Source: a virus
Taxonomy: Duplodnaviria > Heunggongvirae > Uroviricota > Caudoviricetes
Length of the DNA: 19,611 bases
IMG/VR virus record: IMGVR_UViG_2585427757_000001
Span: 1 to 19,611 of that record
Reading direction: 5' to 3' (one strand)
Both the position numbers and the translations under genes were made by a program. Below the pieces are notes generated by a model that saw only the letters and a program-made list of their open reading frames with translations, was not told the DNA's origin and did not search any database. Position 1 is the stretch's first letter; every line of letters begins with the position of its first letter. Positions 1-19,611 of this stretch are shown piece by piece.

Positions 1-1
1 G

Positions 2-2632: not shown

Positions 2633-2643
2633 CTGAGGTAATT

Positions 2644-2826
2644 ATGATCATGCTGATTCTCGCGCCTCTGGTGGGCGTGCTGGGTGCGATTTTGCTGGCG
2701 TATGGTGCCTGGCTGATTTATCCCCCGGCGGGGTTTGTTGTTGCCGGGGCGTTGTGCCTGTTCTGGTCGTGGCTGGTGGCGCGATATCTCGACCGTACAC
2801 AGTCGTCTGTCGGCGGAGGTAAATAG
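2644..2826 (+). CDS. Small hydrophobic protein, two predicted transmembrane helices, unknown function
   Basis: 60-aa ORF ([49 protein letters not shown]...). Good SD (gaggt 2633-2637) 6 nt before ATG; GC content matches flanking genes; sits between large terminase and portal. Confidence 0.5.
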
Positions 2827-4067: not shown

Positions 4068-4695
4068 TGTACCGCTGAGTCTGAAATCTGTCAGTGACTC
4101 CGGTGAGTTTGAAGGGTATGGCTCCGTCTTTGGTGTAAAGGACAGCCACGATGATGTGGTGATGTCCGGGGCATTTGCTGCTTCCCTGCGGGCGTGGAGT
4201 GACAGAAAAGCGTTACCTGCGCTGCTCTGGCAGCACCGCATGGATGAACCCATCGGTGTTTACACCGAAATGAAGGAAGACGATGTCGGACTTTACGTCA
4301 GGGGACGGTTGCTTATTGATGATGATCCCCTCGCAAAACGCGCACATGCACACATGAAGGCCGGTTCGTTAACCGGCCTTTCTATTGGGTACGTCCTGAA
4401 AGACTGGGAATATGACCGGAGCAAAGAAGCCTTTCTGCTGAAAGAAATCGACCTCTGGGAAGTCAGTCTGGTGACGTTCCCGTCTAACGACGAGGCGCGG
4501 ATCAGCGACGTCAAGAACGCACTGGCCCGCGGGGAAATCCCCGAACAGAAAAAAATCGAAAGAGTCCTGCGTGATGTCGGACTCTCCCGTACCCAGGCCA
4601 AAGCATTCATGGCCGGGGGCTATGGCGCACTATCCCTGCGCGACGCTGAGGATGTGGGCTCTGCACTGAATGCACTGAAAAATCTGAACTTCTAA
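4045..4695 (+). CDS. Prohead maturation protease (HK97 family)
   Basis: Translation is an HK97 prohead protease-like sequence (GYGSVFGVKDSHDDVV...GLSIGY...EVSLVTFPSND). The ORF is open from ATG 4009, but ATG 4045 has a better SD (aaggat 4031-4036); the start choice is uncertain. Overlaps the portal 3' end. Confidence 0.85.
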   Translation: MQTKQRLDVPLSLKSVSDSGEFEGYGSVFGVKDSHDDVVMSGAFAASLRAWSDRKALPALLWQHRMDEPIGVYTEMKEDDVGLYVRGRLLIDDDPLAKRAHAHMKAGSLTGLSIGYVLKDWEYDRSKEAFLLKEIDLWEVSLVTFPSNDEARISDVKNALARGEIPEQKKIERVLRDVGLSRTQAKAFMAGGYGALSLRDAEDVGSALNALKNLNF

Positions 4696-4709
4696 TCAGG
4701 AGAAATACG

Positions 4710-5915: not shown

Positions 5916-5922
5916 TCACTCA

Positions 5923-5950
5923 GGGGCGCGGAACTGCGCCCCCTGTTCTG
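5923..5950 (+). terminator. Stem-loop immediately downstream of the capsid gene (possible attenuator or partial terminator)
   Basis: ggggcgc (5923-5929) pairs with gcgcccc (5936-5942) around a 6-nt loop, followed by cctgttctg. The T-tract is weak, so this may modulate rather than stop transcription. Confidence 0.4.
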
Positions 5951-5964
5951 ACGGGTGAAGAATC

Positions 5965-6165
5965 ATGATCCTGAAACAAGATCTGAAATGGTCACCGGAC
6001 GGTATGCGTGTTGAGGTCATTCGGGCCGGTGAGTATGACGACGGGGCGCTTCCTGCCCAGGTGCAGGAGATTGCACTTCAGGCCGGGTTAGCAGAGCGCG
6101 GAATCAGTGCAAAAAGCAGTAAAGCGGCAAAAGAGAAAAAAGCCACGACCAGTAAAGAGGGCTGA
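5965..6165 (+). CDS. Small hypothetical protein between capsid and head-tail connector genes
   Basis: 66-aa ORF co-oriented with the operon, with a Lys/Ser-rich C-terminal tail (SAKSSKAAKEKKATTSKEG). Its stop sits 2 nt before the next gene's start. Confidence 0.45.
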   Translation: MILKQDLKWSPDGMRVEVIRAGEYDDGALPAQVQEIALQAGLAERGISAKSSKAAKEKKATTSKEG

Positions 6166-6167
6166 GT

Positions 6168-6491
6168 ATGCTTCTGACAATGGAAGAGATTAAAGCCCAA
6201 CTCCGGCTGGATGAGGATTTCGATACTGATGACCGCCATCTGCAACTGCTGGCATGTGCGGCGCAAAAGCGGACGGAAACGTATCTGAACCGGAAGCTCT
6301 ATGCACCGGATGAAACCATTCCGGACAGCGATCCGGACGGGCTGCACCTGCCGGATGATATTCGTCTGGGGATGCTGATGCTTATCAGCCATTTTTACGA
6401 AAACCGCTCGTCGGTTACGGAAGTGGAGAAACTCGACATGCCGCAGAGTTTTGACTGGCTTGTCGGCCCGTACAGGTATTTCCCGCAATGA
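6168..6491 (+). CDS. Head-tail connector protein (gp6-like)
   Basis: 107-aa ORF (MLLTMEEIKAQLRLDEDFDTDD...). Size, acidic N-terminus and position after the capsid fit gp6-type connector proteins. Confidence 0.75.
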   Translation: MLLTMEEIKAQLRLDEDFDTDDRHLQLLACAAQKRTETYLNRKLYAPDETIPDSDPDGLHLPDDIRLGMLMLISHFYENRSSVTEVEKLDMPQSFDWLVGPYRYFPQ

Positions 6492-6898
6492 AAATTCGTC
6501 AGGCGCAGACCAGCGCAACCTACATTCTGCCGGACCCCGGTGAACTGAATAAACGCGTCCTGATCCGCCAGCGGGTGGATATGCCCGCGGATAACTTTGG
6601 CGTGGAGCCTCAATACCCGGTTACGTTCCGGGCATGGGCGAAGGTTATCCAGACCAGTGCCACCACCTGGCAGGAAACCGCGCAGACCGGGGACGCCATC
6701 ACCCATTACATCACCATTCGTTACCGCCGGGGGATCACCGCTGATTATGAGGTGGTCTGTGATGACAATGTGTACCGGGTGAAACGTCAGCGCGATCTGA
6801 ACGGAGCGCGGCGCTTTCTGCTGCTGGAGTGTACGGAGCTGGGTGCCGAAGAAGAAATGGGAGGTCGCCGTGGATCAGACAGCATTTTTACACGTTGA
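6488..6898 (+). CDS. Head closure / head-tail adaptor protein
   Basis: 136-aa ORF, start overlapping the previous stop (ATGA at 6488-6491); position and size fit the head-tail joining family. Confidence 0.7.
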   Translation: MKIRQAQTSATYILPDPGELNKRVLIRQRVDMPADNFGVEPQYPVTFRAWAKVIQTSATTWQETAQTGDAITHYITIRYRRGITADYEVVCDDNVYRVKRQRDLNGARRFLLLECTELGAEEEMGGRRGSDSIFTR

Positions 6899-7379
6899 TT
6901 TCAAACAACCGGAGGAGATGGAGTTTAACCGTGCCAGGCTCCGAAGGGCATTCGTTCAAATCGGGCGTGTCTATATGCGTGATGCCCGGCGGCTGGTGAT
7001 GCGACGTGGTCGGTCGGCACCGGGTGAAAACCCCGGCTATCAGACCGGACGACTTGCTCGTTCGATTGGTTACATGGTCCCCCGTAAAAGCTCCCGTCGT
7101 TCTGGCCTGATGGTCAGGATTTCCCCTAACCAGAAAAACGGGCAGGGAAACCGCCGTATCACCGGTGATTTTTATCCGGCTTTTTTGTTCTATGGCGTGA
7201 GGCGAGGGGCAAAGCGTCGTCGCAGCCATCATCGTGGTGCATCCGGTGGCAGCGGCTGGCGACTGGCTCCACGTAATAACTTCATGGTGGAAACGCTTGA
7301 AAAGAACCGCAGTTGGACACGCTATTTTCTGGCGCGGGAATTGCGTAAATCACTGAAGCCGGAGCGACGACACAGATGA
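6870..7379 (+). CDS. HK97 gp10-like head-tail joining protein (highly basic)
   Basis: Arg-rich protein containing QTGRLARSIGY, which resembles the gp10-family motif. The ORF is open from GTG 6843; GTG 6870 has the best SD (gggaggt 6858-6864) and ATG 6918 is another candidate, so the start is uncertain. Confidence 0.65.
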   Translation: MDQTAFLHVDFKQPEEMEFNRARLRRAFVQIGRVYMRDARRLVMRRGRSAPGENPGYQTGRLARSIGYMVPRKSSRRSGLMVRISPNQKNGQGNRRITGDFYPAFLFYGVRRGAKRRRSHHRGASGGSGWRLAPRNNFMVETLEKNRSWTRYFLARELRKSLKPERRHR

Positions 7380-7936
7380 AACTGACGCCTGTTATTGCTG
7401 CACTGCGTGCCCGCTGTCCGTATTTTGAAAACCGGGTTGCAGGCGCGGCCCAGTTTAAAAATCTGCCGGAGGTCGGAAAGCTGAAACTCCCGGCGGCATA
7501 TGTTGTACCGGGTGATGATTCTCCGGGAGAAAACAAAAGCCAGACCGACTACTGGCAGGAGCTGAAAGAGGGTTTCTCCGTGGTTGTCATACTGAGTAAC
7601 GGGCGTGATGAGCGCGGTCAGTTTGCCTCGTATGATGCGGTGGACGATGTTCGGCAAATGCTCTTTAAGGCCCTGCTGGGCTGGAATCCGGAAGCGTGCG
7701 GTAACCCGATTACCTATGACGGCGGCACGCTGCTGGATCTGAACCGTCATGAGCTGATTTATCAGTTCGATTTTTCGGTCATCAGCGAGCTGACCGAAGA
7801 CGATACCCGCCAGCAGGATGACCTGAACAGTCTGGATGAACTGCGAACGCTGGCGATTGATGTTGATTATCTCGATCCCGGTAACGGGCCTGACGGCGAT
7901 ATCGAACATCACACCGAAATAACCTTTCCTTCCTGA
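7376..7936 (+). CDS. Putative neck / tail-completion protein
   Basis: 186-aa ORF, start overlapping the upstream stop, located just before the sheath gene. Function is assigned by position only. Confidence 0.55.
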   Translation: MKLTPVIAALRARCPYFENRVAGAAQFKNLPEVGKLKLPAAYVVPGDDSPGENKSQTDYWQELKEGFSVVVILSNGRDERGQFASYDAVDDVRQMLFKALLGWNPEACGNPITYDGGTLLDLNRHELIYQFDFSVISELTEDDTRQQDDLNSLDELRTLAIDVDYLDPGNGPDGDIEHHTEITFPS

Positions 7937-7944
7937 GAATCATC

Positions 7945-8106
7945 ATGTTTGTAAAACCCCTGAAAGGGCGGTCAGTTCCTGACCCTGCCCGTGGAGACCT
8001 TTTGCCTTCTGACGGGCGAAATGTGGAAGAAAGCAGCTACTGGCTTCGCCGTATAGCGGCGTGTGATGTGGTACGTGTTAAACAGGATAAGGCTAAAGAA
8101 TCATGA
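7945..8106 (+). CDS. Possible small ORF (53 aa) upstream of the sheath gene, absent from the supplied ORF track
   Basis: ATG 7945 to TGA 8104-8106 (MFVKPLKGRSVPDPARGDLLPSDGRNVEESSYWLRRIAACDVVRVKQDKAKES). It fills an otherwise non-coding 166-bp gap in a tightly packed operon; the SD is weak. Confidence 0.3.
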   Translation: MFVKPLKGRSVPDPARGDLLPSDGRNVEESSYWLRRIAACDVVRVKQDKAKES

Positions 8107-9599
8107 CAATAAGTTTTAGTGCTGTTCCGTCGAATACGCTGGTGCCGTTGTTCTACGCCGAGATGGACAATTCTGCGGCAAATACTGCACAGGACAGCGG
8201 AGCATCGCTGCTGATTGGTCATGCCAATAACGGTGCAGAGATTGTTGCCAACAGTCTGGTACTGATGCCGTCGGCAGACTATGCACGCCAGATTTGTGGT
8301 GCGGGAAGTCAGCTGGCGCGTATGGTCGAGGCTTATCGCCAGACCGACCCGTTTGGTGAGCTGTATGTGATTGCCGTTCCTGAATCCACAGGCGCGGCGG
8401 CAACGGTTACGCTGACGGTGACCGGGGCGGCAACCGAAACCGGCACGGTGAATGTCTATGTGGGACGTACCCGCGTGCAGGCTCCGGTGACCAACGGCGA
8501 TAACGTCACGACGATTGCCAGCAGTATCAAAGATGCCATCAATGCCGTTCCGGCCCTGCCGTTTACGGCTTCATCTTCGGCAGGCGTGGTCACACTGACC
8601 GCGCGTCATAAGGGGCTTTGCGGGAATGAAATTCCTGTCAGCCTCAATTACTACGGCTTTGGTGGGGGCGAAGTGCTGCCAGCGGGCGTACAGATTGCCG
8701 TGGCGACGGGTACCGCCGGAACGGGTGCTCCGGTTCTCACCGGCGCGGTGGCTGCAATGGCGGATGAGCCGTTTGATTATATCGGACTGCCGTTCAACGA
8801 CACGGCCTCCGTTAACACGCTGGTGACCGAGATGAACGATACCAGCGGTCGCTGGAGCTATGCGCGTCAGCTGTATGGTCATGTGTATACGGCAAAGATC
8901 GGCACGCTGTCAGAACTGGTGACCGCAGGTGACCAGTTTAACCAGCAGCACATTACCCTGGCGGGGTACGAAAAAGAGACCCAGACGCCTGCCGACGAAC
9001 TGGCGGCAAGCCGTACCGCCCGCGCAGCGGTGTTTATTCGCAACGATCCGGCACGTCCCACGCAGACCGGTGAGCTGGTGGGTATGCTGCCTGCGCCGAA
9101 GGGGAAACGGTTCACGATGACCGAACAACAGACCCTGCTGTCTCATGGCGTGGCAACGGCGTATGTCGAAAGCGGGGTACTGCGCATTCAGCGTGATGTC
9201 ACCACGTACAGGAAAAACGCTTACGGGGTTGCGGATAACAGCTACCTAGACAGTGAGACTCTGCATACCAGCGCGTATGTACTGCGCAAACTGAAATCCG
9301 TCATTACCAGTAAGTACGGGCGTCACAAGCTTGCCAGTGACGGTACCCGCTTTGGTCCCGGTCAGGCGATTGTCACCCCGGCGGTGATCAAAGGGGAACT
9401 GCTGGCAACCTACCGTCAGCTTGAGCGTGCGGGGATCGTGGAAAACTACGCACTGTTTAAGCAGTACCTGGTTGTGGAGCGTGATGCCAGCGATCCGAAC
9501 CGCCTGAACACGCTGTTCCCGCCTGACTATGTTAACCAGTTGCGTGTCTTTGCCGTGGTTAACCAGTTCCGTCTTCAGTATTCAGAGGAGTCCGCATAA
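8103..9599 (+). CDS. Contractile tail sheath protein
   Basis: 498-aa ORF, immediately followed by a ~118-aa tube-like gene and a chaperone/tape-measure set; the order is typical of myovirus tails. Confidence 0.85.
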   Translation: MTISFSAVPSNTLVPLFYAEMDNSAANTAQDSGASLLIGHANNGAEIVANSLVLMPSADYARQICGAGSQLARMVEAYRQTDPFGELYVIAVPESTGAAATVTLTVTGAATETGTVNVYVGRTRVQAPVTNGDNVTTIASSIKDAINAVPALPFTASSSAGVVTLTARHKGLCGNEIPVSLNYYGFGGGEVLPAGVQIAVATGTAGTGAPVLTGAVAAMADEPFDYIGLPFNDTASVNTLVTEMNDTSGRWSYARQLYGHVYTAKIGTLSELVTAGDQFNQQHITLAGYEKETQTPADELAASRTARAAVFIRNDPARPTQTGELVGMLPAPKGKRFTMTEQQTLLSHGVATAYVESGVLRIQRDVTTYRKNAYGVADNSYLDSETLHTSAYVLRKLKSVITSKYGRHKLASDGTRFGPGQAIVTPAVIKGELLATYRQLERAGIVENYALFKQYLVVERDASDPNRLNTLFPPDYVNQLRVFAVVNQFRLQYSEESA

Positions 9600-9955
9600 T
9601 GGCCCGTATCGGGGGAACCTGTTATTTCAAAATTGACGGTCAGCAGCTATCGCTGACCGGCGGCATTGAGGTGCCCATGAACAGGACGGTCAATGATGAC
9701 ATCATCGGCCTGGACGGTTCAGTGGACCGCAAGGAAACTCACCGTGCGCCTTATGTCAAAGGGACCTTCAAGGTGCCGAAGAATTTTCCGGTGAGCAAAA
9801 TCACCTCGTCTGATGAGATGACCATCACTGCCGAGCTGGCGAACGGTCAGGTCTATGTACTGTCGTCTGCCTGGCTGCACGGCGAAGCGAACCATAATGC
9901 CGAAGAAGGCACGGTCGATCTTGAGTTCCACGGTGAAGAAGGGGATTACCAGTAA
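9599..9955 (+). CDS. Tail tube protein
   Basis: 118-aa ORF with strong SD ggaggag (9583-9589); start overlaps the sheath stop; canonical position after the sheath. Confidence 0.8.
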   Translation: MARIGGTCYFKIDGQQLSLTGGIEVPMNRTVNDDIIGLDGSVDRKETHRAPYVKGTFKVPKNFPVSKITSSDEMTITAELANGQVYVLSSAWLHGEANHNAEEGTVDLEFHGEEGDYQ

Positions 9956-10224
9956 TGAAAGAGCTTGAGTTAAAGAAACCGATTACCGCTCATGGCGAGA
10001 CACTCTCCGTACTGGAGTTTGATGAGCCCACCGGGAAAGATGTCCGCGAGCTGGGGTATCCCTACCAGATGAATCAGGATGAGTCCGTCAGACTTCTGGC
10101 GCATGTGGTGTCGAAATACATTGTGCGGCTGGCGAAAGTGCCGCAAAGCTCTGTCGACCAGATGTCTCCGGCAGACCTGAATGCAGCGGCGTGGCTTGTG
10201 GCTGGGTTTTTTCTCCAGGCCTGA
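9955..10224 (+). CDS. Tail assembly chaperone (G-like)
   Basis: 89-aa ORF between tube and tape measure; its 3' end overlaps a second ORF in the -1 frame. Confidence 0.7.
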   Translation: MKELELKKPITAHGETLSVLEFDEPTGKDVRELGYPYQMNQDESVRLLAHVVSKYIVRLAKVPQSSVDQMSPADLNAAAWLVAGFFLQA

Positions 10225-10373
10225 CGGCTGAATACCTCACTGATCGCTTCTTTGACTGCGCCAGCTACTGGCGCATTAATCCCTTCGAATTGCTGAATAT
10301 GCCGATCAGTGAAATTCCCTTGCTGGTCAGTCAGGCAAACAGGATAGAGCAGGAGAAACGCACACATGGCTGA
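10191..10373 (+). CDS. -1 frame extension of the tail assembly chaperone (GT-like fusion C-terminus)
   Basis: This ORF is in the -1 frame relative to 9955-10224, overlaps its last 34 nt, and ends 8 nt inside the tape measure gene. It has no convincing independent start (the track uses GTG). Confidence 0.55.
   Translation: MACGWVFSPGLTAEYLTDRFFDCASYWRINPFELLNMPISEIPLLVSQANRIEQEKRTHG
10204..10213 (+). promoter_or_regulatory. Candidate programmed -1 frameshift slip site (gggttttttc)
   Basis: A T6 run lies inside the overlap of the two chaperone frames. The zero-frame codons ggg ttt ttt can re-pair in the -1 frame (A-site ttt to ttt). Confidence 0.45.
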
Positions 10374-12198
10374 ATTTGAGCTTAAGGCGTTGATCACCGG
10401 TGTCGACAGGCTTTCTCCCGGGCTGTCGAAAATGCAAAAGAAAATCCGGGGATTTAAACGCCAGGCGGAAGAAGCGTCACAGGGTGGGCTGGCGCTTGGT
10501 GGAGGACTGGCAGCGGGGCTGACGCTTTCCCTGAAATCTTATGCCGATCAGGAAAACGCCGCTACCGGGCTGAAAGTCGCCATGATGGATGCGAACGGCG
10601 AGGTTGGAAAGAGCTTTCAGGACATCAATAAACTGGCTATTGGCCTGGGTAACCAGCTACCCGGTACAACGGCTGATTTCCAGAACATGATGCAGATGCT
10701 GGTGCGTCAGGGGATCCCGGCAGAAAACATTCTGGGTGGTGTGGGTAAAGCGACAGCTTATCTTGCGGTACAACTGAAAAAAACACCGGAAGCGGCTGCT
10801 GAGTTTGCTGCAAAGATGCAGGATGCTACCGGAACGGCGTCAGAAGACATGATGGGGCTGTTCGACACTATCCAGAAGGCGTTTTATCTGGGCGTTGACG
10901 ATACCAACATGTTGTCCTTCTTCACTAAAACCAGTTCTGTTCTGAAGATGGTGAACAAGGACGGTCTTCAGGCTGCACAGAGCCTTGCCCCCATCAGCGT
11001 CATGATGGATCAGATGGGGATGAACGGGGAGTCGGCAGGTAATGCCCTGCGAAAAGTTATCCAGTCCGGATTAAGTGTTAAGAAAATCAGGGACGTCAAT
11101 AAAGTCATGGCCCGCCAGAAACTCGGGGTACAGCTCGATTTTACTGACGGCAAAGGAAGTTTTGGCGGTCTTGATAACATGTTCAGGCAACTGGCAAAGT
11201 TGCGAAAACTGACCGACGTTAAGCGAACAGGCGTACTTAAGGCAATATTTGGTGATGATGCCGAAACCCTTCAGGTGGTCAATGCCCTGATCGATAAAGG
11301 AAAGGATGGCTACGATCAGATCCAGCAGAAGATGAATAAACAGGCCAGCCTGAATAAACGTGTTCAGGCTCAGCTTGGTACGCTGTCCAACCTGTGGGAG
11401 GCAATGACGGGGACCGCAACTAACGGTCTTGCAGCTATTGGCGGCGCATTTTCTGGTGACGCTAAAAATATCACGCAATGGCTGGGGGAGTTGGGGGAAA
11501 AATTCACGAAGTTTGCGGATGAAAATCCCCGGGTTATTCGCGGCGTCGTCGGGCTTGCTGCCGGTCTTGCGATTCTGAAACTGGGATTGATGGGCGTTGG
11601 CGGTGCCATCAGTATTGTCAGCAGGATCATGTCGATGACGCCGATTGGCATGATTGCGACGGCGATAGCCCTGGCTGCGGGATTAATTATCACTAACTGG
11701 GATGTTGTCGGACCTTATTTTAAGAAACTCTGGGAAACCATTGGTCCTTATTTTGAGGCTGGCTGGGAACTCCTTAAGAAAGTTTTTGCCTGGTCGCCGC
11801 TGGGGATGGTGATCAATAACTGGGGGCCGGTTGTTAAGTGGTTTCAGGATATGTGGGACAAGCTGAAGCCAATTATTGAGTGGTTTACCGACAGTTCCGG
11901 TGACACGGTCGATGCCATTAACTCTGCGCAGTGGGGCGCGGGTGCTTATGATGCTTATGGGACGGGAATACCGACGCGGGGATACACACCTTATCCGGCG
12001 GTGGATCCGGCTCAGTCAAACAACGCCTCCGATGCCACAGGCCCGAATCCCTTCATGATTAACAAAGCTATCGCGCCAAAAGTTGATGGCGAGATCAAGG
12101 TTTCATTTATGAATATGCCACCAGGTATGCGGGTTACGGAAACACGTTCCAGTGGCATTGATATTAATCACGATGTTGGGTACACCAGATTTAGGTAA
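10366..12198 (+). CDS. Tail tape measure protein
   Basis: 610-aa ORF with SD aggag (10351-10355). Long Ala/Gly/Leu-rich helical protein with a C-terminal hydrophobic segment and repeated W/GPYF motifs (GPYFKKLWETIGPYFEAGWELLKK...WGPVVKWFQDMWDKLK); position after the chaperone pair. Confidence 0.88.
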   Translation: MAEFELKALITGVDRLSPGLSKMQKKIRGFKRQAEEASQGGLALGGGLAAGLTLSLKSYADQENAATGLKVAMMDANGEVGKSFQDINKLAIGLGNQLPGTTADFQNMMQMLVRQGIPAENILGGVGKATAYLAVQLKKTPEAAAEFAAKMQDATGTASEDMMGLFDTIQKAFYLGVDDTNMLSFFTKTSSVLKMVNKDGLQAAQSLAPISVMMDQMGMNGESAGNALRKVIQSGLSVKKIRDVNKVMARQKLGVQLDFTDGKGSFGGLDNMFRQLAKLRKLTDVKRTGVLKAIFGDDAETLQVVNALIDKGKDGYDQIQQKMNKQASLNKRVQAQLGTLSNLWEAMTGTATNGLAAIGGAFSGDAKNITQWLGELGEKFTKFADENPRVIRGVVGLAAGLAILKLGLMGVGGAISIVSRIMSMTPIGMIATAIALAAGLIITNWDVVGPYFKKLWETIGPYFEAGWELLKKVFAWSPLGMVINNWGPVVKWFQDMWDKLKPIIEWFTDSSGDTVDAINSAQWGAGAYDAYGTGIPTRGYTPYPAVDPAQSNNASDATGPNPFMINKAIAPKVDGEIKVSFMNMPPGMRVTETRSSGIDINHDVGYTRFR

Positions 12199-12205
12199 AG
12201 ACGAA

Positions 12206-12227
12206 CAGGGAGGGCCGTCCCTCCCTG
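12206..12227. terminator. Perfect 9-bp GC-rich hairpin between convergent genes
   Basis: cagggaggg-ccgt-ccctccctg; it lies 8 nt after the tape measure stop and 3 nt after the antisense gene's stop. On the minus strand it is followed by ttcgtcttt. Confidence 0.5.
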
Positions 12228-12230
12228 AAC

Positions 12231-12677
12231 TTACTGTGCGAACACGCAATTTCGGCCTGATGGGGAGCCGACAATTCTGGACATTTTTTCGCAAATAACA
12301 GTTACTTGTTCTCCTTTTTTAAGAGCAGCAGCTGTTGATTTTTCAGAGTCTTGCATCTCCATTCTTGCTGGCATGAATTCATTTTCAGTTCTGAATTTAA
12401 TAATTATAGAGTCAGTAAAGTCCTTATCAATGGATTGTACGATACCTCTAACGGCGATTAATTTACCTTTTAACTGTTCATCGGTAGCGACTTCATTTTC
12501 TTCATACTCTTTAAACAGCTGTCGAGCAGTAGTGTTGTAGATTTCTTTTTGCGGTGCCGCAGCTTCCGTATCGGATGAGTATGAAGAATTAGAGCCTTTA
12601 TCGTTATTGCCTGCAAAATATCCAATAATCACCAACCCGATGAAAATATATAAAATCCATTTTAATAATTTCTTCAT
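12231..12677 (-). CDS. Membrane-anchored protein of unknown function with a putative OB-fold-like extracytoplasmic domain; antisense AT-rich moron
   Basis: 148-aa ORF on the opposite strand to the operon. Strong SD on the minus strand (aaggtga, 5 nt before ATG). N-terminal hydrophobic anchor (KKLLKWILYIFIGLVIIGYFAG) without a lipobox Cys, a Ser-rich linker, then a ~100-aa domain (KGKLIAVRGIVQSIDKDFTDSIIIKF...LKKGEQVTVICEK). The surrounding DNA is markedly AT-rich compared with the flanks. Confidence 0.7.
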   Translation of the reverse strand: MKKLLKWILYIFIGLVIIGYFAGNNDKGSNSSYSSDTEAAAPQKEIYNTTARQLFKEYEENEVATDEQLKGKLIAVRGIVQSIDKDFTDSIIIKFRTENEFMPARMEMQDSEKSTAAALKKGEQVTVICEKMSRIVGSPSGRNCVFAQ

Positions 12678-12739
12678 GTTATCACCTTAATGCTAATAAT
12701 TTATATAGTTACAAATGGTAATGGCTACCACTACAAATT

Positions 12740-14116
12740 ATGGCATTACCAGTAAATATTACTACTGATAATAAATATGGGACTTATATGACGTGGAAAG
12801 ACAGGCTTCAGGATGCGTCATTTCGCAGCGTGCCGTTTAAGGTTGAAGAAGAAAGTGCGGGAACCGGTCGCCGTGTGGAAACACATGAATACCCGAACCG
12901 CGACAAGCCCTATACCGAAGATCTGGGAAAAGTCACTTTCCGCCCGTCCATCACAGCTTATGTGGTGGGAGATGACTGCTTTGACCAGCGCGATCGCCTG
13001 ATTGAAGCGCTGAATAAACCCGGTCCCGGCACACTTGTCCACCCGACATATGGTGAGCTGAAAGTCTGTGTTGACGGGGAAGTTCGGGTCAGCACATCGA
13101 AAAGTGAAGGGCGTATTGTCCGCTTTGACCTGAAGTTTGTCGAAGCAGGAGAACTCTCTTACCCCACATCAGGTGCGGCGACGGCGCAGACGCTGATGTC
13201 ATCCTGTTCTGCACTGGATGACTGCATCAGTGACAGCTTCAGCGGTTTCAGTATCGATGGTGTGGCGGATTTCGTGCAGAACGACGTTATCGGTAATGCC
13301 AGCACAATGCTTGGGTATGTTTCTGATGCGATGAAAGTGGTGGATTCTGCCGTATCGGATGCCGCCAGGCTGTTGCAGGGGGATATCTCGGTACTTCTGC
13401 CGCCGCCATCCTCAGGCAAAAATTTCGTTGAGCAGGTGCAGAAAATGTGGCGTACCGGGAAACGCCTTTATGGTAACGCCAGCGACCTGGTCACCATGAT
13501 CAAAACGCTTTCCGGTGTCAGCCTCGGCAGCGATCTGCAACCGCGCGGCGTCTGGAAAACGGACAGTAAAACCACCGCCACGGCGACGCAGCAGCGTAAC
13601 GTGGTTGCCAGCACCCTTCGTACGACCGCAATCAGCGAAGCGGCGTATGCCGTCACCCGATTGCCTGCGCCAACAACTTCCGCGGTGATGCAGAATTCCG
13701 CAGTGGGGCAGGCAACAACACCCGCGCAGAGCACTGGCTGGCCTTCCGTCACGCATCCGGCACTGAACAATGCACCGGCGGTGAAAAACACGGTTGACCT
13801 GCCAACGTGGGAAGAACTGACCGACATTCGCGACACACTGAATACGGCAATTGATAAGGAGTTGTCCCGTACAACCAGTGATGCGCTGTTTCTGGCGCTG
13901 CGCCGGGTGAAAGCAGATCTGAATGCGGATATCAACACGCGCCTTGAACAGTCTGCACGGATCATTCAGCGCACACCGGATGAGGTTTTACCCGCGCTGG
14001 TGCTGGCGGCGACCTGGTTTGATAACGCGGCGCGTGACGCGGACATTATCCGGCGTAATGCCATTACGCATCCCGGCTTTGTGCCGGTGATCCCTCTGAA
14101 GGTGCCAGTGCAATGA
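12740..14116 (+). CDS. DNA circularization protein (Mu N-like)
   Basis: 458-aa ORF directly after the tape measure region, as in Mu-type tails. ATG 12740 lies in the AT-rich insert; the next in-frame ATG at 12788 (MTWKDRLQD...) is an alternative start. Confidence 0.8.
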   Translation: MALPVNITTDNKYGTYMTWKDRLQDASFRSVPFKVEEESAGTGRRVETHEYPNRDKPYTEDLGKVTFRPSITAYVVGDDCFDQRDRLIEALNKPGPGTLVHPTYGELKVCVDGEVRVSTSKSEGRIVRFDLKFVEAGELSYPTSGAATAQTLMSSCSALDDCISDSFSGFSIDGVADFVQNDVIGNASTMLGYVSDAMKVVDSAVSDAARLLQGDISVLLPPPSSGKNFVEQVQKMWRTGKRLYGNASDLVTMIKTLSGVSLGSDLQPRGVWKTDSKTTATATQQRNVVASTLRTTAISEAAYAVTRLPAPTTSAVMQNSAVGQATTPAQSTGWPSVTHPALNNAPAVKNTVDLPTWEELTDIRDTLNTAIDKELSRTTSDALFLALRRVKADLNADINTRLEQSARIIQRTPDEVLPALVLAATWFDNAARDADIIRRNAITHPGFVPVIPLKVPVQ

Positions 14117-15192
14117 ACGACAATGTCACGCTACGGGTAAATGGCCGGGAGTGGAATGGCTGGACATCGGTGCGCATCGGTGCCGGTATTGAACGGCTGG
14201 CGCGGGATTTCAGTGTGGAGATCACTCGCCAGTGGCCGGGAGATGAGGGTATCACCACGCTTCAGCCGCGCATTAAAAACGGTTCAAAAGTGGAAGTGCT
14301 GATTGGTGATGAGCTGGTGATCACCGGCTGGGTGGAGGCGACTCCCGTTCGTTACGATGCCCGTTCGGTCAGCACCGGTATTGCCGGACGTAGTCTGACG
14401 GCTGACCTGATTGACTGTGCAGCCGAACCGACACAGTTTAACGGACGCTCGCTGGTGCAGATTGCGCAGGCGCTTGCTGCGCCTTTCGGCATTGAGGTGG
14501 TGAACAGCGGTGCGCCATCGGGTGTTATTCCTGATGTTCAGCCTGATCACGGTGAAACGGTGATTGAGGTAATCAACAAAATACTCGGTCAGCAGCAGGC
14601 GCTGGCTTACGACGACCCGCACGGCAGGCTGGTGATTGGCGGTATTGGCTCAACGCGGGCACATACCGCGCTGGTACTTGGGGAAAACATCCTTTCCTGT
14701 GATACGGAGAAGAGTATCCGGGAGCGGTTTTCTGTTTACCAGGTGGCGGGGCAGCGTGCCGGAAACGACGATGATTTCGGTGAGGCCACCACCACCGCGC
14801 TGCGGGCCCGCACAGAGGACGCATTTATTGCCCGTTACCGTCCGATGTATATCAGGCAGACAGGGCAGGCCACGGGGGCAGGTTGTATTGCGCGTGCTGA
14901 CTTTGAAGCCCGACAACGGGCGGCGCGGACGGATGAAACCACCTATGTGGTGCAGGGCTGGCGACAGGGTAACGGTACGCTGTGGCAGCCCAACCAGCGG
15001 GTGATTGTCTTCGATCCGGTCTGTGGTTTCGACAATACCGAACTGCTTGTCTCGGAAGTCACGTTTACTCAGGACCAGAACGGCACCCTGACGGAAATCC
15101 GTGTCGGCCCACCTGATGCTTATCTGCCTGAACCCGAAGCCCCCGGCGCGCGGAAAAAGAAAAAAGCCAGAGTACAGGAGGACCCGTTCTGA
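14113..15192 (+). CDS. Baseplate hub / tail protein (Mu P-like)
   Basis: 359-aa ORF with start overlapping the upstream stop; its position between the N-like and spike-like genes matches the Mu baseplate order. Confidence 0.75.
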   Translation: MNDNVTLRVNGREWNGWTSVRIGAGIERLARDFSVEITRQWPGDEGITTLQPRIKNGSKVEVLIGDELVITGWVEATPVRYDARSVSTGIAGRSLTADLIDCAAEPTQFNGRSLVQIAQALAAPFGIEVVNSGAPSGVIPDVQPDHGETVIEVINKILGQQQALAYDDPHGRLVIGGIGSTRAHTALVLGENILSCDTEKSIRERFSVYQVAGQRAGNDDDFGEATTTALRARTEDAFIARYRPMYIRQTGQATGAGCIARADFEARQRAARTDETTYVVQGWRQGNGTLWQPNQRVIVFDPVCGFDNTELLVSEVTFTQDQNGTLTEIRVGPPDAYLPEPEAPGARKKKKARVQEDPF

Positions 15193-15740
15193 TGAGGACG
15201 ATTGAAGCCATGCAGCGACAACTTCTCGGCCTGATTGGGCGGGCAGTGGTGAAAAGCATCAGTGCCGCCACGAAATGTCAGACTGTGGATGTGTCCCTGA
15301 TTGCCGGTGAACCCAAAGCCGGGGTTGAACATCTTGAACCCTACGGTTTTACCGCAAGGGCAAACAGCGGTGCGGAAGCGGTGGTGTTGTTTCCGGATGG
15401 CGACCGTTCTCATGCGGTGGTTGTTACGGTGTCGGACCGGCGCTACCGCCTGAAAGGGCTGCAGACGGGTGAGGTGGCTGTCTATGACGATCAGGGGCAG
15501 TCTGTGACGCTGACCCGGGAGGGGATCGTGGTGGACGGTGCAGGTAAAACGATCACGTTTCGCAATGCGCCCAGAGCACGTTTTGAAATGGACCTGGAAG
15601 TGACCGGACAGGTGAAAGACCTGTGCGACTCCGGCGGTACCACCATGTCAGCGATGCGGCTTGCCTATAACGGGCATCGTCACAGAGAGAACGGTCAGGG
15701 CAGTAACACCGACAAACCTGATAAAGCGATGGAGGCATGA
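15192..15740 (+). CDS. Baseplate assembly / spike protein (gpV-like)
   Basis: 182-aa ORF with SD ggagga (15177-15182); size and position typical of gpV-type baseplate spike proteins. Confidence 0.75.
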   Translation: MRTIEAMQRQLLGLIGRAVVKSISAATKCQTVDVSLIAGEPKAGVEHLEPYGFTARANSGAEAVVLFPDGDRSHAVVVTVSDRRYRLKGLQTGEVAVYDDQGQSVTLTREGIVVDGAGKTITFRNAPRARFEMDLEVTGQVKDLCDSGGTTMSAMRLAYNGHRHRENGQGSNTDKPDKAMEA

Positions 15741-16165
15741 TGGAACTGTGGCTGACGGTGAACGGTAAACGCACCTGCGCCAGCGCACAGCTGGATCCGC
15801 TGACCCGCGCCGTGGTGATTTCCCTGTTTACTTGGCGGCGGGCGGAGCCTGATGACAACGCCGATGTCCCGATGGGATGGTGGGGGGATACCTGGCCTGC
15901 GGTACAGAATGACCGTTACGGCTCCCGACTGTGGCTGCTTCAGCGCAGCAAACTGACCAATCAACTGGTGCAGACGGTAAGGGGGTATATCCGCGAATGC
16001 CTGCAATGGATGATTGATGACGGCGTGGTGTTCCGTATTGATCTGGATATCCGCCGTACCGGGATTAATGAACTGGGTAACAGTATCACTCTCTGGCGTC
16101 GTGACGGACCGGTAATGATTTCTTTTGATGATCTGTGGAGTGCGATAACGCATGGCGGACAGTGA
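15737..16165 (+). CDS. Mu gp46-like baseplate protein
   Basis: 142-aa ORF translationally coupled to its neighbours; sits between the spike and J-like genes. Confidence 0.75.
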   Translation: MMELWLTVNGKRTCASAQLDPLTRAVVISLFTWRRAEPDDNADVPMGWWGDTWPAVQNDRYGSRLWLLQRSKLTNQLVQTVRGYIRECLQWMIDDGVVFRIDLDIRRTGINELGNSITLWRRDGPVMISFDDLWSAITHGGQ

Positions 16166-17210
16166 ATTTCAGCGCCCGACGCTGGCAGAAAATATCAGTA
16201 TGCTCCGTAACGATTTATTCGCCAGGCTGGACGTCAGCGACACGCTCCGGCGCATGGATGAAGACGTGCGGGCAAAGGTGTATGCGGCGGCGCTGCATAC
16301 GGTCTACGGGTACATCGATTATCTGGCAATGAATATGCTGCCTGACCTGTGCGATGAGTCCTGGCTGGCGCGACATGCTGCGATGAAACGGTGTCCGCGC
16401 AAAGGGGCCACGGCTGCCAGCGGGTATATGCGCTGGGAAGGTGTCAGCGATGGCCTGAAGGTGACTGCCGGGAGCGTGATTCAGCGCGATGACCTGGTTC
16501 AGTACACGGCAACTGCCGATGCAACCAGCTCCGGTGGTGTCCTGCGTGTGCCGATCACTTGCTCAACTACAGGCGCGGTCGGTAACGCTGACGACGGTAC
16601 GGCATTAATCCTGGTCACGCCGGTGAATGGTCTGCCGTCTTCCGGTGTTGCAGATACCCTGACTGGCGGATTCGATACTGAAGATCTGGAAACGTGGCGC
16701 GCCCGCGTCATTGAGCGGTATTACTGGACGCCGCAGGGCGGGGCTGACGGGGACTATGTCGTCTGGGCTAAAGAAGTGCCCGGCATTACCCGCGCATGGA
16801 CATACCGTCACTGGATGGGAACGGGAACTGTCGGTGTGATGATTGCCAGCAGTGACCTGATTAATCCCATTCCGGAAGAATCAACGGAAACGGCGGCAAG
16901 ACAACATATCGGGCCACTGGCCCCGGTGGCAGGCTCTGACTTGTATGTGTTCAGGCCGGTGGCACATACGGTGGATTTTCATATCCGCGTGACGCCGGAT
17001 ACACCGGAAATACGGGCTGCCATCACCGCGGAGTTGCGTTCGTTCCTGCTGCGTGATGGTTATCCGCAGGGAGAACTGAAGGTGTCGCGTATCAGTGAGG
17101 CGATTTCCGGTGCGAACGGGGAATACAGCCATCAGTTGCTTGCACCGGCAGACAATATCTCCATTGCAAAAAATGAACTGGCGGTTCTGGGGACGATTTC
17201 ATGGACGTGA
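16152..17210 (+). CDS. Baseplate J-like protein
   Basis: 352-aa ORF in the canonical J position before the gp48-like and tail fibre genes. Confidence 0.8.
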
Positions 17211-17785
17211 CAAACGATGATTACATCCGTCTGTTGTCTGCACTGTTGCCCCCCGGTCCGGCGTGGTCAGCCAGCGATCCGGCGATTGCCGGTGCGGCAT
17301 CGTCATTAACCCGCGTTCATCAGCGTGCGGATGCCCTGATGCGGGAGCTGGATCCGCGCACCACCACCGAACTGATAAACCGCTGGGAGCGTCTGTGCGG
17401 CCTGCCGGATGAATGTATTCCCGCAGGGACACAGACCCTTCGCCAGCGTCAGCAACGACTGGATGCGAAGGTTAACCTGGCGGGCGGCATCAATGAGGAT
17501 TTTTACCTTGCACAGCTTGCTGCCCTGGGCAGACCAGACGCTACCATCACGCGATACGACAAAAGCACGTTCACCTGCTCATCAGCCTGCACTGACGCTG
17601 TGAATGCGCCGGAATGGCGGTATTACTGGCAGGTCAACATGCCAGCCGCCACCAACACCACCTGGATGACATGTGGCGATCCCTGTGATTCCGCACTGCG
17701 TATCTGGGGCGACACCGTTGTCGAGTGTGTGCTTAACAAACTCTGCCCGTCGCATACCTACGTAATTTTTAAATATCCGGAGTAA
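17201..17785 (+). CDS. Mu gp48-like tail protein (YmfQ-like)
   Basis: 194-aa ORF overlapping the J-like gene's 3' end and directly preceding the tail fibre gene; the arrangement is as recalled for Mu-type tails and the e14 remnant. Confidence 0.7.
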
Positions 17786-17788
17786 TCC

Positions 17789-18532
17789 ATGCATCGTATA
17801 GACACGAAAACCGCGCAGAAGGATAAGTTCGGCGCGGGTAAGAACGGTTTTACCCGTGGTAACCCCCAGACTGGCACACCTGCCACCGATCTGGATGATG
17901 ACTACTTTGATATGTTGCAGGAAGAACTCTGCAGCGTGGTGGAGGCATCCGGTGCCAGCCTGGAGAAGGGGCGAAACGACCAGTTGCTTACCGCGCTTCG
18001 TGCTCTGCTGTTAAGCCGCAAGAATCCGTTTGGTGATATCAAATCGGATGGCACCGTGAAAACAGCTCTCGAAAACCTTGGTTTGGGAGAAGCGGCAAAA
18101 CGGAATGTGGGCAACGGGGAAAACCAAATCCCTGATATGTCTTTCTGGACGGTTACTGGTGGCAATGGAAATTTTGTGATTCGTCAACCTGACGGGCTAA
18201 TCATTCAGATGGTTACTGTAAGTATAAGCGGCCCGGTGGCGATGAATGGAATGACTGATAATGCTTATGCCATTACAGGTTCTAATAAGTCTTATATTGC
18301 CACAGCCACATTGCCCTTTGTATTTCCTAATAAGGTGCTGGGCGTTATCCCTCTGGTATCAACAACAGCTTATGGTGGTGTATCCAGTAATATTACAGGT
18401 TCATACGCGACTGCGGTTTGTTCTTTTGCCGCTGTCAGGGGAAATAATACGATTGTGTTCAAAGTCGACAAACCACTGAATGCAGCCTTTCCTTCAGATA
18501 CCAGCGTCTCAGCGTTAATCATTGGACGGTAA
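17789..18532 (+). CDS. Tail fibre protein: constant N-terminal part plus variable C-terminal receptor-binding part
   Basis: 247-aa ORF with SD ggagt (17779-17783). The N-terminus ([26 protein letters not shown]...) resembles the conserved start of Mu/P2-type fibres. Composition becomes AT-richer after about 18100. The gene contains the candidate invertase crossover site at 18066-18091. Confidence 0.8.
18066..18091. other. Candidate site-specific invertase crossover site (hix/gix/pix-like 26-mer)
   Basis: ctctcgaaaacc-tt-ggtttgggagaa; the reverse complement is TTCTCCCAAACC AA GGTTTTCGAGAG. Two imperfect 12-bp inverted half-sites flank a central dinucleotide, matching the TTCTnnnAAACCAAGGTTTnnGAnAn pattern of Hin/Gin/Cin/Pin sites. 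It lies inside the fibre gene at the constant/variable boundary. Confidence 0.55.
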
Positions 18533-18534
18533 GA

Positions 18535-18978
18535 ATGAACTCAGTATTCTTTTCACCCGGAAGTAAAAGTTTTTATCTGCAAGAATTGTTTCCAGAATAT
18601 GAGGATGCGGGAACGCTTCCTGATGATGTTATTGAAATTACCAGAGAAACATATGAGCAATTTCTTGGGCTGCATCCAGAAGGGAAAGAAATTGGCGCTG
18701 ACAGTTCAGGACGGCCAGTATGGATTAATTCCCCACCCCCTTCAAAAGAGGATGAGGTGTTGACGGCTGAAATGAAAAAAATATCTTTGGTTTCTGAAGT
18801 CAATACCTACATCAATACTCATCAGTGGCCTGGCAAAGCGGCGATTGGTCGTCTGAAAAGTGAGGAACTGGCGCAATATAATTTGTGGCTGGATTATCTG
18901 GACGCACTGGAACTGGTTGATACCTCCAGTGCTCCAGATATTGAATGGCCTACGCCTCCGGCAGTTCAGGCCAGATGA
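18535..18978 (+). CDS. Tail fibre assembly protein (Tfa)
   Basis: 147-aa ORF directly after the fibre gene; C-terminus (...LDYLDALELVDTSSAPDIEWPTPP...) shows the Tfa-type motif. Confidence 0.8.
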   Translation: MNSVFFSPGSKSFYLQELFPEYEDAGTLPDDVIEITRETYEQFLGLHPEGKEIGADSSGRPVWINSPPPSKEDEVLTAEMKKISLVSEVNTYINTHQWPGKAAIGRLKSEELAQYNLWLDYLDALELVDTSSAPDIEWPTPPAVQAR

Positions 18979-19552
18979 CATCCGGCGCGGTGCTGGTATC
19001 TGTTGCCGTCACCGTGTCAATGTAATCCAGCACAGCGTTAAGGCGAGTGATTTCTGCTTGCGTCAGCTGCCGCCCGGCCTGTAATTTCAGCTGAATCAGA
19101 CTGATGGAAGCCATAGCAGCATCAATCAGCGACTGGCGCTGTGCTTCTGCCACGTCTACTGCGGCGCTATGCTGTGCCTCAGTATCGGTCACCCATTTCT
19201 CACCATCCCATTTATCGAATGGCGTTAACGGGGCGATAGTAGTTGTATTTTCAGGGTAATCACCCGGAGCTGTGATTTCTTTTGATTCTCCTGTTTCAGT
19301 GCTATATACCGTTTCACCGCGATGATCTGGCACATATTCCCATGAGTTAAAATCTGCAGAACGGCAAATTGCATAACCAGCTTTATATGAGCCAGGAGCA
19401 TCTAAACAGGAACATGCCGGAATACCGACGCCAACCGCAAGATATTCAGTTGATGTGGAAATATATTCCCGCGTTTCACCATCATAATTATAAATGGTAA
19501 TGTCTCCCGCTTTTATGGCAATGAGTTCGTTATTTAATACGGCTTTATTCAT
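18950..19552 (-). CDS. Second tail fibre assembly protein, inverted orientation (Tfa')
   Basis: 200-aa minus-strand ORF with SD on the minus strand (gaggg, 6 nt before ATG). Its C-terminus (...LDYIDTVTATDTSTAPDVIWPELPEA) parallels the + strand Tfa C-terminus; the two genes converge and overlap by 29 bp (18950-18978). Confidence 0.8.
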   Translation of the reverse strand: MNKAVLNNELIAIKAGDITIYNYDGETREYISTSTEYLAVGVGIPACSCLDAPGSYKAGYAICRSADFNSWEYVPDHRGETVYSTETGESKEITAPGDYPENTTTIAPLTPFDKWDGEKWVTDTEAQHSAAVDVAEAQRQSLIDAAMASISLIQLKLQAGRQLTQAEITRLNAVLDYIDTVTATDTSTAPDVIWPELPEA

Positions 19553-19562
19553 CAGGCAGCCC

Positions 19563-19611
19563 TCACGATATAATTAAAGGCAATGTTACGAGGACGGTTT
19601 TCGTTTGCAGT
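19563..19611 (-). CDS. 3' end of an alternative tail-fibre variable segment, inverted orientation; partial, continues beyond the window
   Basis: Minus-strand frame open from the window edge to a stop at 19563-19565 (...LQTKTVLVTLPLIIS*), ending 10 nt before the Tfa' start. Called from context only: 16 codons are visible. Confidence 0.35.
   Translation of the reverse strand, partial: LQTKTVLVTLPLIIS

Follow-up and report, generated by a model that had tools for sequence, protein, structure and literature searches.

The question raised by the right end of this tail operon was whether its AT-rich DNA is a receptor-binding module that was exchanged independently of the rest of the tail, and whether the boundary of the exchange coincides with a recombination site inside the fibre gene, as a first-pass annotation had proposed. 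The window (the whole stretch of 19,611 nucleotides analysed, virus record IMGVR_UViG_2585427757_000001) is of the SfV/e14-like prophage type, with an HK97-like head and a Mu-like tail. The closest complete E. coli genome was 97.7-97.9% identical and S. flexneri SFBU0723 96.2% identical. Baseplate genes gp45-gp48 were collinear with those of SfV (95.9% over 16000-18139), and a Pfam Phage_Mu_Gp48 match was found for 17201-17785.

Position 18066 to the window end very probably represents the left-hand two-thirds of an invertible tail-fibre segment of the Din family (Pin/Gin/Cin type) in an SfV/e14-like prophage, a segment whose tips have been exchanged horizontally. A serine invertase, predicted from relatives to be encoded just beyond the window, would recombine 18066-18091 with an inverted partner site, and inversion would exchange the tip that continues the reading frame of the constant 101-codon N-terminus for the alternative one, both tips having a Tfa of their own; this copy probably still inverts. 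Sequence inside the site would meet the backbone solely via the crossover and would therefore have its own evolutionary history. Modules consisting of a tip and a Tfa N-domain would be replaced by recombination in short conserved flanks: at one end the inner half-site and 48-nt linker, at the other the Tfa C-terminal domain. Such modules are in circulation across SfV/e14-like, P2-like and P1-like elements.

The reading of the AT-rich region as an exchanged cassette is supported, and the finding, while correct, is an ordinary one: the arrangement is that of the long-known, classical Din-family segment and involves no new principle. Invertible fibre segments, and the horizontal traffic of their modules between P1, P2, Mu and e14, belong to textbook knowledge; mosaic exchange of invertible fibre segments among these elements was reportedly described by Sandmeier (in 1992) and Haggard-Ljungquist (in 1992).

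The fibre gene, crossover site and chaperone genes

The features of the locus are listed in Table 1. The fibre gene, which represents the expressed state of the invertible system, was collinear with SfV orf21, e14 ycfK/stfP and a RefSeq gene in the 97.7% identical relative L001. A weak match to Gp53-like_C, under the Pfam cut-off, was observed for amino acids 134-218, and the N-terminus was weakly similar to Mu fibre S (E 0.038) in a PDB sequence search; PDB sequence searches with the fibre and tfa(-) returned nothing beyond this match.

Table 1. Features and base composition of the tail-fibre locus (window coordinates)
Feature	Position	Strand	GC	GC3	Remarks
Baseplate genes (GC from 13500-17500)			0.56-0.61, about 0.58	0.62-0.63	
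Tail-fibre gene, 247 aa	17789-18532	+			Open reading frame; in frame across the crossover site
Constant (backbone) fibre part	17789-18065	+			Tail-operon composition
Fibre codons 1-101 (constant part and site)	17789-18091	+	0.531	0.584	
26-bp Din-family crossover site (left, pix-type)	18066-18091	.			CTCTCGAAAACC TT GGTTTGGGAGAA; central dinucleotide 18078-18079
Fibre codons 102-247	18092-18532	+	0.449	0.395	
Conserved linker just inside segment (16 protein letters, 48 nt)	18092-18139	+			Common to many otherwise different cassettes
Putative cassette-specific receptor-binding tip, AT-rich	18140-18532	+			No similarity in SfV, e14 or other collinear relatives
tfa(+), cognate tail-fibre assembly chaperone gene	18535-18978	+		0.365	Pfam Caudo_TAP, E 2.7e-28
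tfa(-), second chaperone gene, TfaE-type	18950-19552	-		0.418	Pfam Caudo_TAP, E 1.8e-32
3' end of silent, promoterless alternative tip (Sv')	19553-19611	-			Cut by window end

The crossover site consists of two imperfect inverted half-sites around the central dinucleotide and lies in frame within the fibre, where it encodes LENLGLGE. Its sequence was identical in L001, L002, SfV, SfIV, 689R6, K-12 e14 and L1PEag1, and one base differed in XH990. The published e14 inverted repeat (TTGGTTTGGGAGAAGG) overlaps the site in 15 of 16 bases, and the layout agrees with the 26-bp consensus layout quoted in PMC4134206, which deals with 26-bp crossover sites, tail-fibre allele switching in E. coli prophages and trans-acting invertases. 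Inversion of the e14 P segment, with its inverted repeats, by PinE, PinQ or PinR has been described (PMC12529663).

Two opposed tips, each with its own tfa gene, are present: 18092-18532 with 18535-18978 on the plus strand, and 19553-19611 with 18950-19552 on the minus strand, the two tfa genes overlapping by 29 nt. Both tfa products scored above the curated cut-off for Caudo_TAP (PF02413; 99.1 and 112.7 bits against 22.1), their likeness to each other being confined to the C-terminal ~80 amino acids (33%). According to PMC9608196, which cites the Mu Tfa structure, the N-domain of Tfa proteins binds the fibre and is variable, while the C-domain is conserved. HK97 tfa was 92% identical to tfa(-) over 18898-19480, and tfa(-) is the chaperone for the silent alternative tip. 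The open frame of this tip (...NIAFNYIVRAA*) ends at the start of tfa(-); in L001 it goes on as a Collar-domain fragment of 182 amino acids, after which come the right-hand site and pinE.

A repeat search within the window yielded no partner site, the window ending (19611) before the expected position. The right-hand site of L001 (TTCTCCTAAACC AA CGTTTATGAAAA, 7050-7075) is equivalent to a position about 465 nt past the window end; for the locus beyond 19611 the right-hand site would be expected to resemble TTCTCC(C/T)AAACCAACGTTTATGAAAA, in inverted orientation. The pinE product of L001 matched Resolvase (PF00239, E 1.4e-51) and HTH_7 (PF02796); no invertase gene lies within the window. In L002 and L007 the invertase gene is a remnant.

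Relatives and sharing of the cassette

The constant fibre part was 95-97% identical in all SfV/e14-type relatives, yet most E. coli records were not collinear across about 18090: only 39 of the 1983 that matched 17400-18800 spanned the junction, and in an evenly spaced sample of the E. coli alignments 58 of 60 ended within 18067-18143. Matches to collinear relatives (95-97%) reached 18139 in SfV, SfIV and L1PEag1, by which the linker is delimited, 18117 in K-12 e14, and 18092 in XH990 and 689R6. Past these limits unrelated fibre tips are carried, and alignments of other prophages start again at 18808-18916, in tfa(+). The annotated claims that the boundary lies at the recombination site and that the receptor-binding end moved independently of the tail were both supported. 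The result marks where the predicted host-range determinants of this prophage family get swapped.

The cassette also occurred elsewhere, at 94-98% identity. A P2-like prophage matched it from 18067 and a P1-like phage-plasmid from 18075, and in these it follows unrelated fibre N-termini of 426 and 756 amino acids, respectively; the constant fibre part is missing from both kinds of carrier. P2-like prophages whose H fibre tip is invertible (E. coli PCP06021; the O157:H43 T22 phage) share the cassette, from 18067 as far as the window end, next to a recombinase gene, with 98% identity in 18140-18807 and about 94% overall; the match to the T22 phage was limited to 18067-18139 (86%), with divergent sequence after it. 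In contrast, their baseplate and shaft genes (V, W, J, I, H) are unrelated and the outer half-site is TTCTCGCATACC. The P1-like L012 was 94.4% identical over 18075-19602. The tip and the chaperone N-domain (18140-18807) are found as one unit on three unrelated tail types. Of 5426 complete E. coli genomes, 242 carried the module 18140-18800, but only 39 had it contiguous with this constant part.

Identity within the cassette was uneven. It was 98%, 92.6% and 88.7% to the P2-like L008, and 99%, 93% and 83% to the collinear L002, over 18140-18807, 18808-19252 and 19253-19552, respectively. The cassette is a mosaic of sub-modules with separate histories; exchange as such, claimed at first pass for a single cassette, stands, but not as a single unit. 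The right boundary of the block common to the P2-like and P1-like elements falls about 50-70 nt within Sv' (L001 6602-6619), away from the right-hand site; the cassette therefore cannot simply be equated with the complete invertible segment.

Among known systems, the e14 P segment of E. coli K-12 (stfP/ycfK, tfaP, tfaE, stfE, pinE) has the same order of ymfQ, fibre, tfa(+), tfa(-), silent tip and pin, with an identical left crossover site and identities of 95.5% up to 18117 and 89% over 18823-19602, whereas the tip and tfa(+) N-domain (18118-18822) are unrelated. The segment in the window is accompanied by what looks like a full SfV-like set of tail and head genes, while e14 is a deleted remnant. 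In the Shigella phages SfV, SfI, SfII and SfIV the tail operon is 96% identical to 18139, site sequence included; in SfV a single, dissimilar tip and a lone tfa precede a terminator and the gtr genes, with no invertase, and the second tfa of SfIV is broken by an IS element. The inversion switch in this group is degenerate. The P1 C segment (Cin) and Mu G segment (Gin) resemble the present locus in having a 26-bp site in the fibre gene, constant and variable parts, convergent chaperones and an adjoining serine invertase, but the constant fibre part and outer half-site differ, and the fibre here is 247 amino acids as against 756. A P1-like phage-plasmid carries the cassette of the window at 94-95% identity.

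A tblastn of the tip against phage records returned distant relatives only (about 35%) and no donor clue. When species-representative genomes were scanned using the tip protein, the only matches were to Shigella flexneri (99%) and, distantly, Enterobacter and Pantoea, with no sign of a low-GC donor genus. Promoterless tips of this kind are usually annotated as 'hypothetical' or 'phage tail protein', and the arrangement can assist their annotation as well as the choice of fusion points for re-targeting phages or tailocins.

Composition across the crossover site

The GC content of 18092-19552 was 0.457, compared to 0.542 for positions 1-17788 and the higher values of the baseplate genes (Table 1), and was ~2.4 sd low relative to upstream windows of 1461 nt (mean 0.541, sd 0.035, minimum 0.450). 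GC3 dropped from 0.58-0.63 to 0.27-0.44 across the break. A second AT-rich island, lower still (GC down to 0.32), was seen in the window at 12000-13000. A raw-GC change-point was flat over 17600-18250 and could not place the break at the site; codon position was therefore required to localise it. A two-segment change-point was fitted to the third-codon positions of seven consecutive plus-strand genes (from the gene at 14113 to tfa(+)), with a support interval defined by a log-likelihood ratio (LLR) within 2 of the maximum and with 2000 permutations. The peak fell at 18025-18061 and the support interval (17983-18169) spans the crossover site; the LLR was 29.9, against a permutation maximum of 11.5 (n=2000).

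The profile is not uniform, and the AT-rich break after the site was confirmed. The AT-richness had been said to run through both tfa genes, but it is discontinuous, forming a compositional mosaic. The truly AT-rich blocks are 18140-18807 and 19253-19552 (GC 0.41-0.45, GC3 0.27-0.40), whereas the C-terminal half of tfa(-) (18950-19252) is backbone-like (GC 0.545, GC3 0.564). Within tfa(+), the N-terminal domain (18535-18807), which travels with the tip, is AT-rich (GC3 0.319) and the conserved C-terminal part (18808-18978) has a GC of 0.50 and a GC3 of 0.439. The AT-rich blocks are the specificity modules (fibre tip and fibre-binding Tfa N-domains) and the GC-normal block is the conserved Tfa C-domain. 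The fibre N-terminus shares the operon's composition as annotated, although over 101 codons to the site end and not ~95.

These modules may instead be AT-rich by nature, through a mutational or selective regime, for example rapid diversification or relaxed codon selection while silent, with no foreign origin involved; this account of the composition is a tentative one and rather unlikely. Every unrelated alternative cassette examined had a low GC3 (0.33-0.48, compared to 0.59-0.64 in the constant part), the cassette of the P1-like plasmid lies below its own backbone (0.35-0.43 against 0.47-0.52), and the split runs inside a single gene, tfa(-) (0.27 in its N-terminal half). Against it, the Tfa C-domains are GC-normal despite sharing the same invertible segment and expression regime, and horizontal sharing across phage families was directly observed. 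The shift is mainly at third positions, so amino-acid composition is not the driver. This account concerns the cause of the composition and not the exchange, and is compatible with horizontal exchange of the tips. The pin gene is also AT-rich, less strongly than the cassettes; as AT-richness is common to pin and all alternative cassettes examined, no particular donor is indicated. P1-like elements were considered as a compositional donor, since their total GC fits (0.45 against 0.46-0.50), but were unconvincing given that the GC3 of the cassette is below that of the P1-like backbone.

Routes of exchange and inversion states

For wild-type Din invertases, the strongly favoured substrate is a pair of inverted sites in cis together with a Fis-bound enhancer, which in Din-family systems lies in the 5' part of the invertase gene. 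This preference weighs against a route, improbable overall, in which an invertase, and not homologous recombination, transfers cassettes between co-resident phages by acting intermolecularly at crossover sites (a natural recombinase-mediated cassette exchange). The outer half-site was backbone-specific (CTCTCGAAAACC, TTCTCGCATACC and TCCTCAATTACC), unlike the inner half-site and the 48 nt after it, which were identical across SfV-like, P2-like and P1-like carriers, and identity to the P1-like copy starts at 18075, 3 nt before the central dinucleotide; invertases also work in trans on heterologous sites (PMC12529663, PMC4134206). However, the shared block stops short of the right-hand site, and ordinary inversion re-joins any segment sequence at the core, so a sharp break there is expected however the cassette arrived. 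There is a slim chance that the half-site pattern records invertase recombination between different replicons, or that it goes back to an inversion module having been captured at quasi-sites. If so, Din invertases would be agents of fibre-cassette transfer between unrelated phages, beyond on-the-spot switching.

That the loss of collinearity at about 18090 reflects just two inversion states of one segment, with no cassette exchange, is very improbable. Some breaks at the site do come from nothing more than inversion: L002 (IHE3034) and L007 (FDAARGOS_1297) are one prophage in opposite states, the alignments of L007 to the window breaking at 18073-18092, and the reciprocal hybrid sites of these two relatives (not the window's own genome) put strand exchange at the central TT. 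Similarly, in 689R6 the constant part is joined to a collar-type tip that is silent in L001. Inversion is refuted as the sole explanation by the tips of SfV, SfIV, K-12 e14, XH990 and L1PEag1, which have no similarity to either tip here, and by the occurrence of the cassette on P2-type and P1-type shafts.

A chance fluctuation in GC, for which the island at 12000-13000 and the flatness of the raw-GC likelihood over about 650 nt could be cited, has a negligible probability and is refuted by the permutation result and by the recurrence of the same step, which six SfV/e14-type relatives show and which is also present in the P2-like context.

Gene order and composition of the fibre region

The ORF map of the window (terminase, portal, protease, major capsid, sheath, tube, tape measure) places the Mu-type baseplate genes gp45 to gp48 before the fibre gene and two tfa genes, a gene order also found in E. 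coli K-12 e14 (ymfQ, ycfK/stfP, tfaP, tfaE, stfE, pinE). The Shigella phages SfV, SfI, SfII and SfIV were 96% identical to positions 16000-18139; among complete E. coli genomes, strain fS25a came nearest, with 97.7% identity over 16000-19611. The 3' ends of the two tfa genes overlap by 29 nt (18950-18978), identically in all examined relatives with both genes, and their conserved C-terminal motifs give rise to an imperfect inverted repeat of 16 nt (18888-18903/19016-19031).

Coordinates of the fibre-region genes of the window and of the genes adjoining pin in five relatives
Feature	Sequence	Position	Strand	Source
Fibre gene, 247 aa	window	17789-18532	+	ORF map
tfa(+)	window	18535-18978	+	ORF map
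tfa(-), convergent with tfa(+)	window	18950-19552	-	ORF map
KAP P-loop NTPase gene, adjoining pin	L001 (fS25a)	7935-10271		
DUF262 protein gene, adjoining pin	L002 (IHE3034)	7298-9187		
McrA gene, adjoining pin	L009	7233-8066		
McrA-like endonuclease gene, adjoining pin	L004	6082-6915		
GIY-YIG protein gene, adjoining pin	L011	7185-7958		

The first-pass annotation had described the DNA from just after the candidate crossover site through both tfa genes as clearly more AT-rich than the upstream baseplate genes, and the N-terminal codons of the fibre as sharing the composition of the operon. The GC content of 18092-19552 was 0.457, compared to 0.56-0.61 for the baseplate genes and 0.542 for 1-17788, with third codon positions accounting for most of the drop. 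The baseplate genes had a GC3 of 0.62-0.63 and fibre codons 1-101 one of 0.584 (operon-like, as described), against 0.395 for codons 102-247; the N part of tfa(+) stood at 0.319 and the N half of tfa(-) at 0.27. The AT-richness is nevertheless patchy, since the C-terminal half of tfa(-) (18950-19252; GC 0.545, GC3 0.564) and the C part of tfa(+) (GC 0.50) depart from it; the observation is confirmed for the region as a compositional mosaic, but not as a uniform feature. Raw GC was flat over 17600-18250 in change-point analysis and cannot localise the break, while GC3 across seven consecutive genes gave a peak at 18025-18061 (support interval 17983-18169; log-likelihood ratio 29.9, the highest value among 2000 permutations being 11.5). 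The break is thus genuine, and its position is compatible with the crossover site, where it had been placed.

GC3 was low in all alternative cassettes examined in the SfV/e14 family (tips 0.35-0.48, tfa(+) 0.32-0.37), with values of 0.59-0.64 for the constant part and intermediate values for pin (0.41-0.45). The same step is present in the P2-like context. On the P1-like plasmid, cassette and backbone have equal total GC (0.45 vs 0.46-0.50), but GC3 is still lower in the cassette. As every cassette examined has low GC3, low GC is a property of the whole module class rather than a single-donor signature. In the species-representative genomes, Escherichia and Shigella were the only genera with the tip protein itself; Enterobacter and Pantoea had distant relatives.

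Positions 12000-13000 form a second AT-rich island, stronger than 18092-19552. Here the tape-measure gene and a gpN-like gene are separated by an AT-rich insert of approximately 526 nt (12199-12739, GC 0.32-0.43). It carries a minus-strand ORF (12231-12677, 148 aa) with a tRNA_anti-like OB-fold domain (PF12869, E 2.9e-19), for which a PADLOC search returned no match. SfV, SfI, SfII and 689R6 lack the insert, its flanks being adjacent there, and it looks like a moron.

Loss of similarity at the junction and the cassette on other backbones

In a search of the phage collection, matches to SfV, SfI and SfII ended at 18139 and those to 689R6 at 18092, and matches to P2-like phages started at 18067. 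Pairwise BLAST gave left-hand alignments of 95-97% identity which ended at 18092 (XH990, 689R6), 18117 (K-12 e14) or 18139 (SfV, SfIV, L1PEag1), and in these six relatives similarity past the break was detected only from the conserved C-terminal region of tfa (18808-18916) onward. Complete E. coli genomes yielded 1983 records matching 17400-18800, only 39 of which span the junction. Of 60 evenly spaced alignment rows from this search, 2 spanned the junction, 6 started at 18067-18073 and 52 ended within 18075-18143 (18 at 18092, 17 at 18139-18143 and 6 at 18117-18118). The anticipated drop in identity at about 18090 is thus present in relatives.

E. coli PCP06021 carries the stretch between 18067 and the window end inside a P2-like prophage (V, W, J, I, a 426-aa H fibre, recombinase, sheath), with 98% identity in 18092-18807, 92.6% in 18808-19252 and 88.7% in 19253-19552. 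On pSBF22b, a 96.9-kb P1-like phage-plasmid with darA, block 18075-19602 (94.4% identity) forms the end of a 756-aa fibre adjoined by a recombinase gene. The outer half-site is backbone-specific (CTCTCGAAAACC in the window, TTCTCGCATACC in the P2-like and TCCTCAATTACC in the P1-like element), and the inner half-site, GGTTTGGGAGAA, is the same in all three; in the 48 nt past it, the P1-like copy shows no difference and the P2-like copy a single differing base. Of 5426 complete E. coli genomes, 242 carried module 18140-18800, nearly always at ≥95% identity. The cassette has been replaced among collinear prophages and one cassette occurs on three tail types, which supports the earlier interpretation that the receptor-binding end was exchanged independently of the rest of the tail.

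Unit of exchange

The collinear prophage of IHE3034 was 99% identical to the window in 18140-18807, 83% in 19253-19552 and 73% in 19553-19611. The block common to fS25a and the P2-like and P1-like elements stops at 6602-6619 of the fS25a locus, where it has covered only a few codons of the second tip, and from ~6811-6853 onward similarity returns at 78-82%, across the right-hand site into pin. Given these identities and a right end inside the second tip, the exchange unit is smaller than the invertible segment; it consists of the fibre tip plus the N-terminal domain of its cognate chaperone, between conserved flanks. This unit agrees with PMC9608196, based on the Mu Tfa structure, in which the variable N-terminal domain of Tfa binds the fibre tip and the conserved C-terminal domain drives assembly. 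The two Tfa proteins of the window resemble each other only over their last ~80 residues, and the compositional mosaic tracks the Tfa domain limits.

Modules would be exchanged mainly via homologous recombination within the conserved flanks. That similarity breaks off sharply at the core is not proof of site-specific transfer, because ordinary inversion re-joins the segment contents to the backbone exactly there; homology common to the different backbones is absent left of the core.

Crossover site and inversion

The crossover site (18066-18091, CTCTCGAAAACC TT GGTTTGGGAGAA) codes for LENLGLGE in the fibre frame. The identical 26-mer occupies the same position in SfV, SfIV, 689R6, K-12 e14 and three more E. 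coli prophages, and the XH990 site differs by one base. Its layout, 26 bp around a central dinucleotide, is the one that PMC4134206 describes for tail-fibre switching by invertases, and it overlaps in 15 of 16 bases with TTGGTTTGGGAGAAGG, the inverted repeat of the 1797-bp e14 P segment (PMC12529663). The window stops at 19611, within the 3' end of another fibre tip, encoded on the minus strand. In fS25a this second tip extends to a 182-aa Collar-domain fragment, and the partner site (TTCTCCTAAACC AA CGTTTATGAAAA) and pinE (Resolvase and HTH_7 domains) come after it. The window copy probably remains invertible, depending on the DNA past its end.

One prophage, with identical protein accessions, is present in strains IHE3034 and FDAARGOS_1297 (L007) in opposite inversion states. 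The two sites of L007 are exact reciprocal hybrids of those of IHE3034, with the junction at the central TT/AA, which shows site-specific inversion at 18078-18079 for the prophage family. In both strains the invertase gene adjoining the segment is a 123-nt remnant (L002 7074-7196; L007 5817-5939), and the flip reflects either a trans-acting invertase elsewhere in the genome or an inversion older than the truncation; trans-acting invertases have been reported for e14 (PMC12529663) and EC958 prophages (PMC4134206). The site, the in-frame constant and variable parts and the paired chaperones are all present, and inversion at the central dinucleotide would join either tip, with its chaperone, in frame to the constant part of the fibre.

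This is the same classical Din-family arrangement as Mu G/Gin, P1 C/Cin and e14 P/Pin, and an invertible, exchangeable tail-fibre system is an already known, ordinary finding. Haggard-Ljungquist et al. (1992) reportedly described how fibre genes move horizontally between unrelated phages, and Sandmeier et al. (1992) and a review by Sandmeier (1994) are said to have covered how fibre motifs are acquired and rearranged around inversion systems.

SfV (L003 5290-6426) keeps the crossover-site sequence, with one tip, one tfa, a terminator and then gtr genes, and lacks an invertase; in SfIV (L006 6336-8014) the second tfa is split by an ISEhe3 insertion. Both arrangements look like decayed forms of the switch. 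In E. coli O157:H43 T22, a P2-like phage carries an orphan outer half-site (TTTTCATAAACG; L005 ~3480-3530) immediately upstream of a complete H-type crossover site adjoining the invertase; this half-site may be the scar of an older recombination at the site. The gene adjoining pin is different in each of the five relatives tabulated, and the prophage end past the invertase resembles a variable slot that takes up defence-type cargo.
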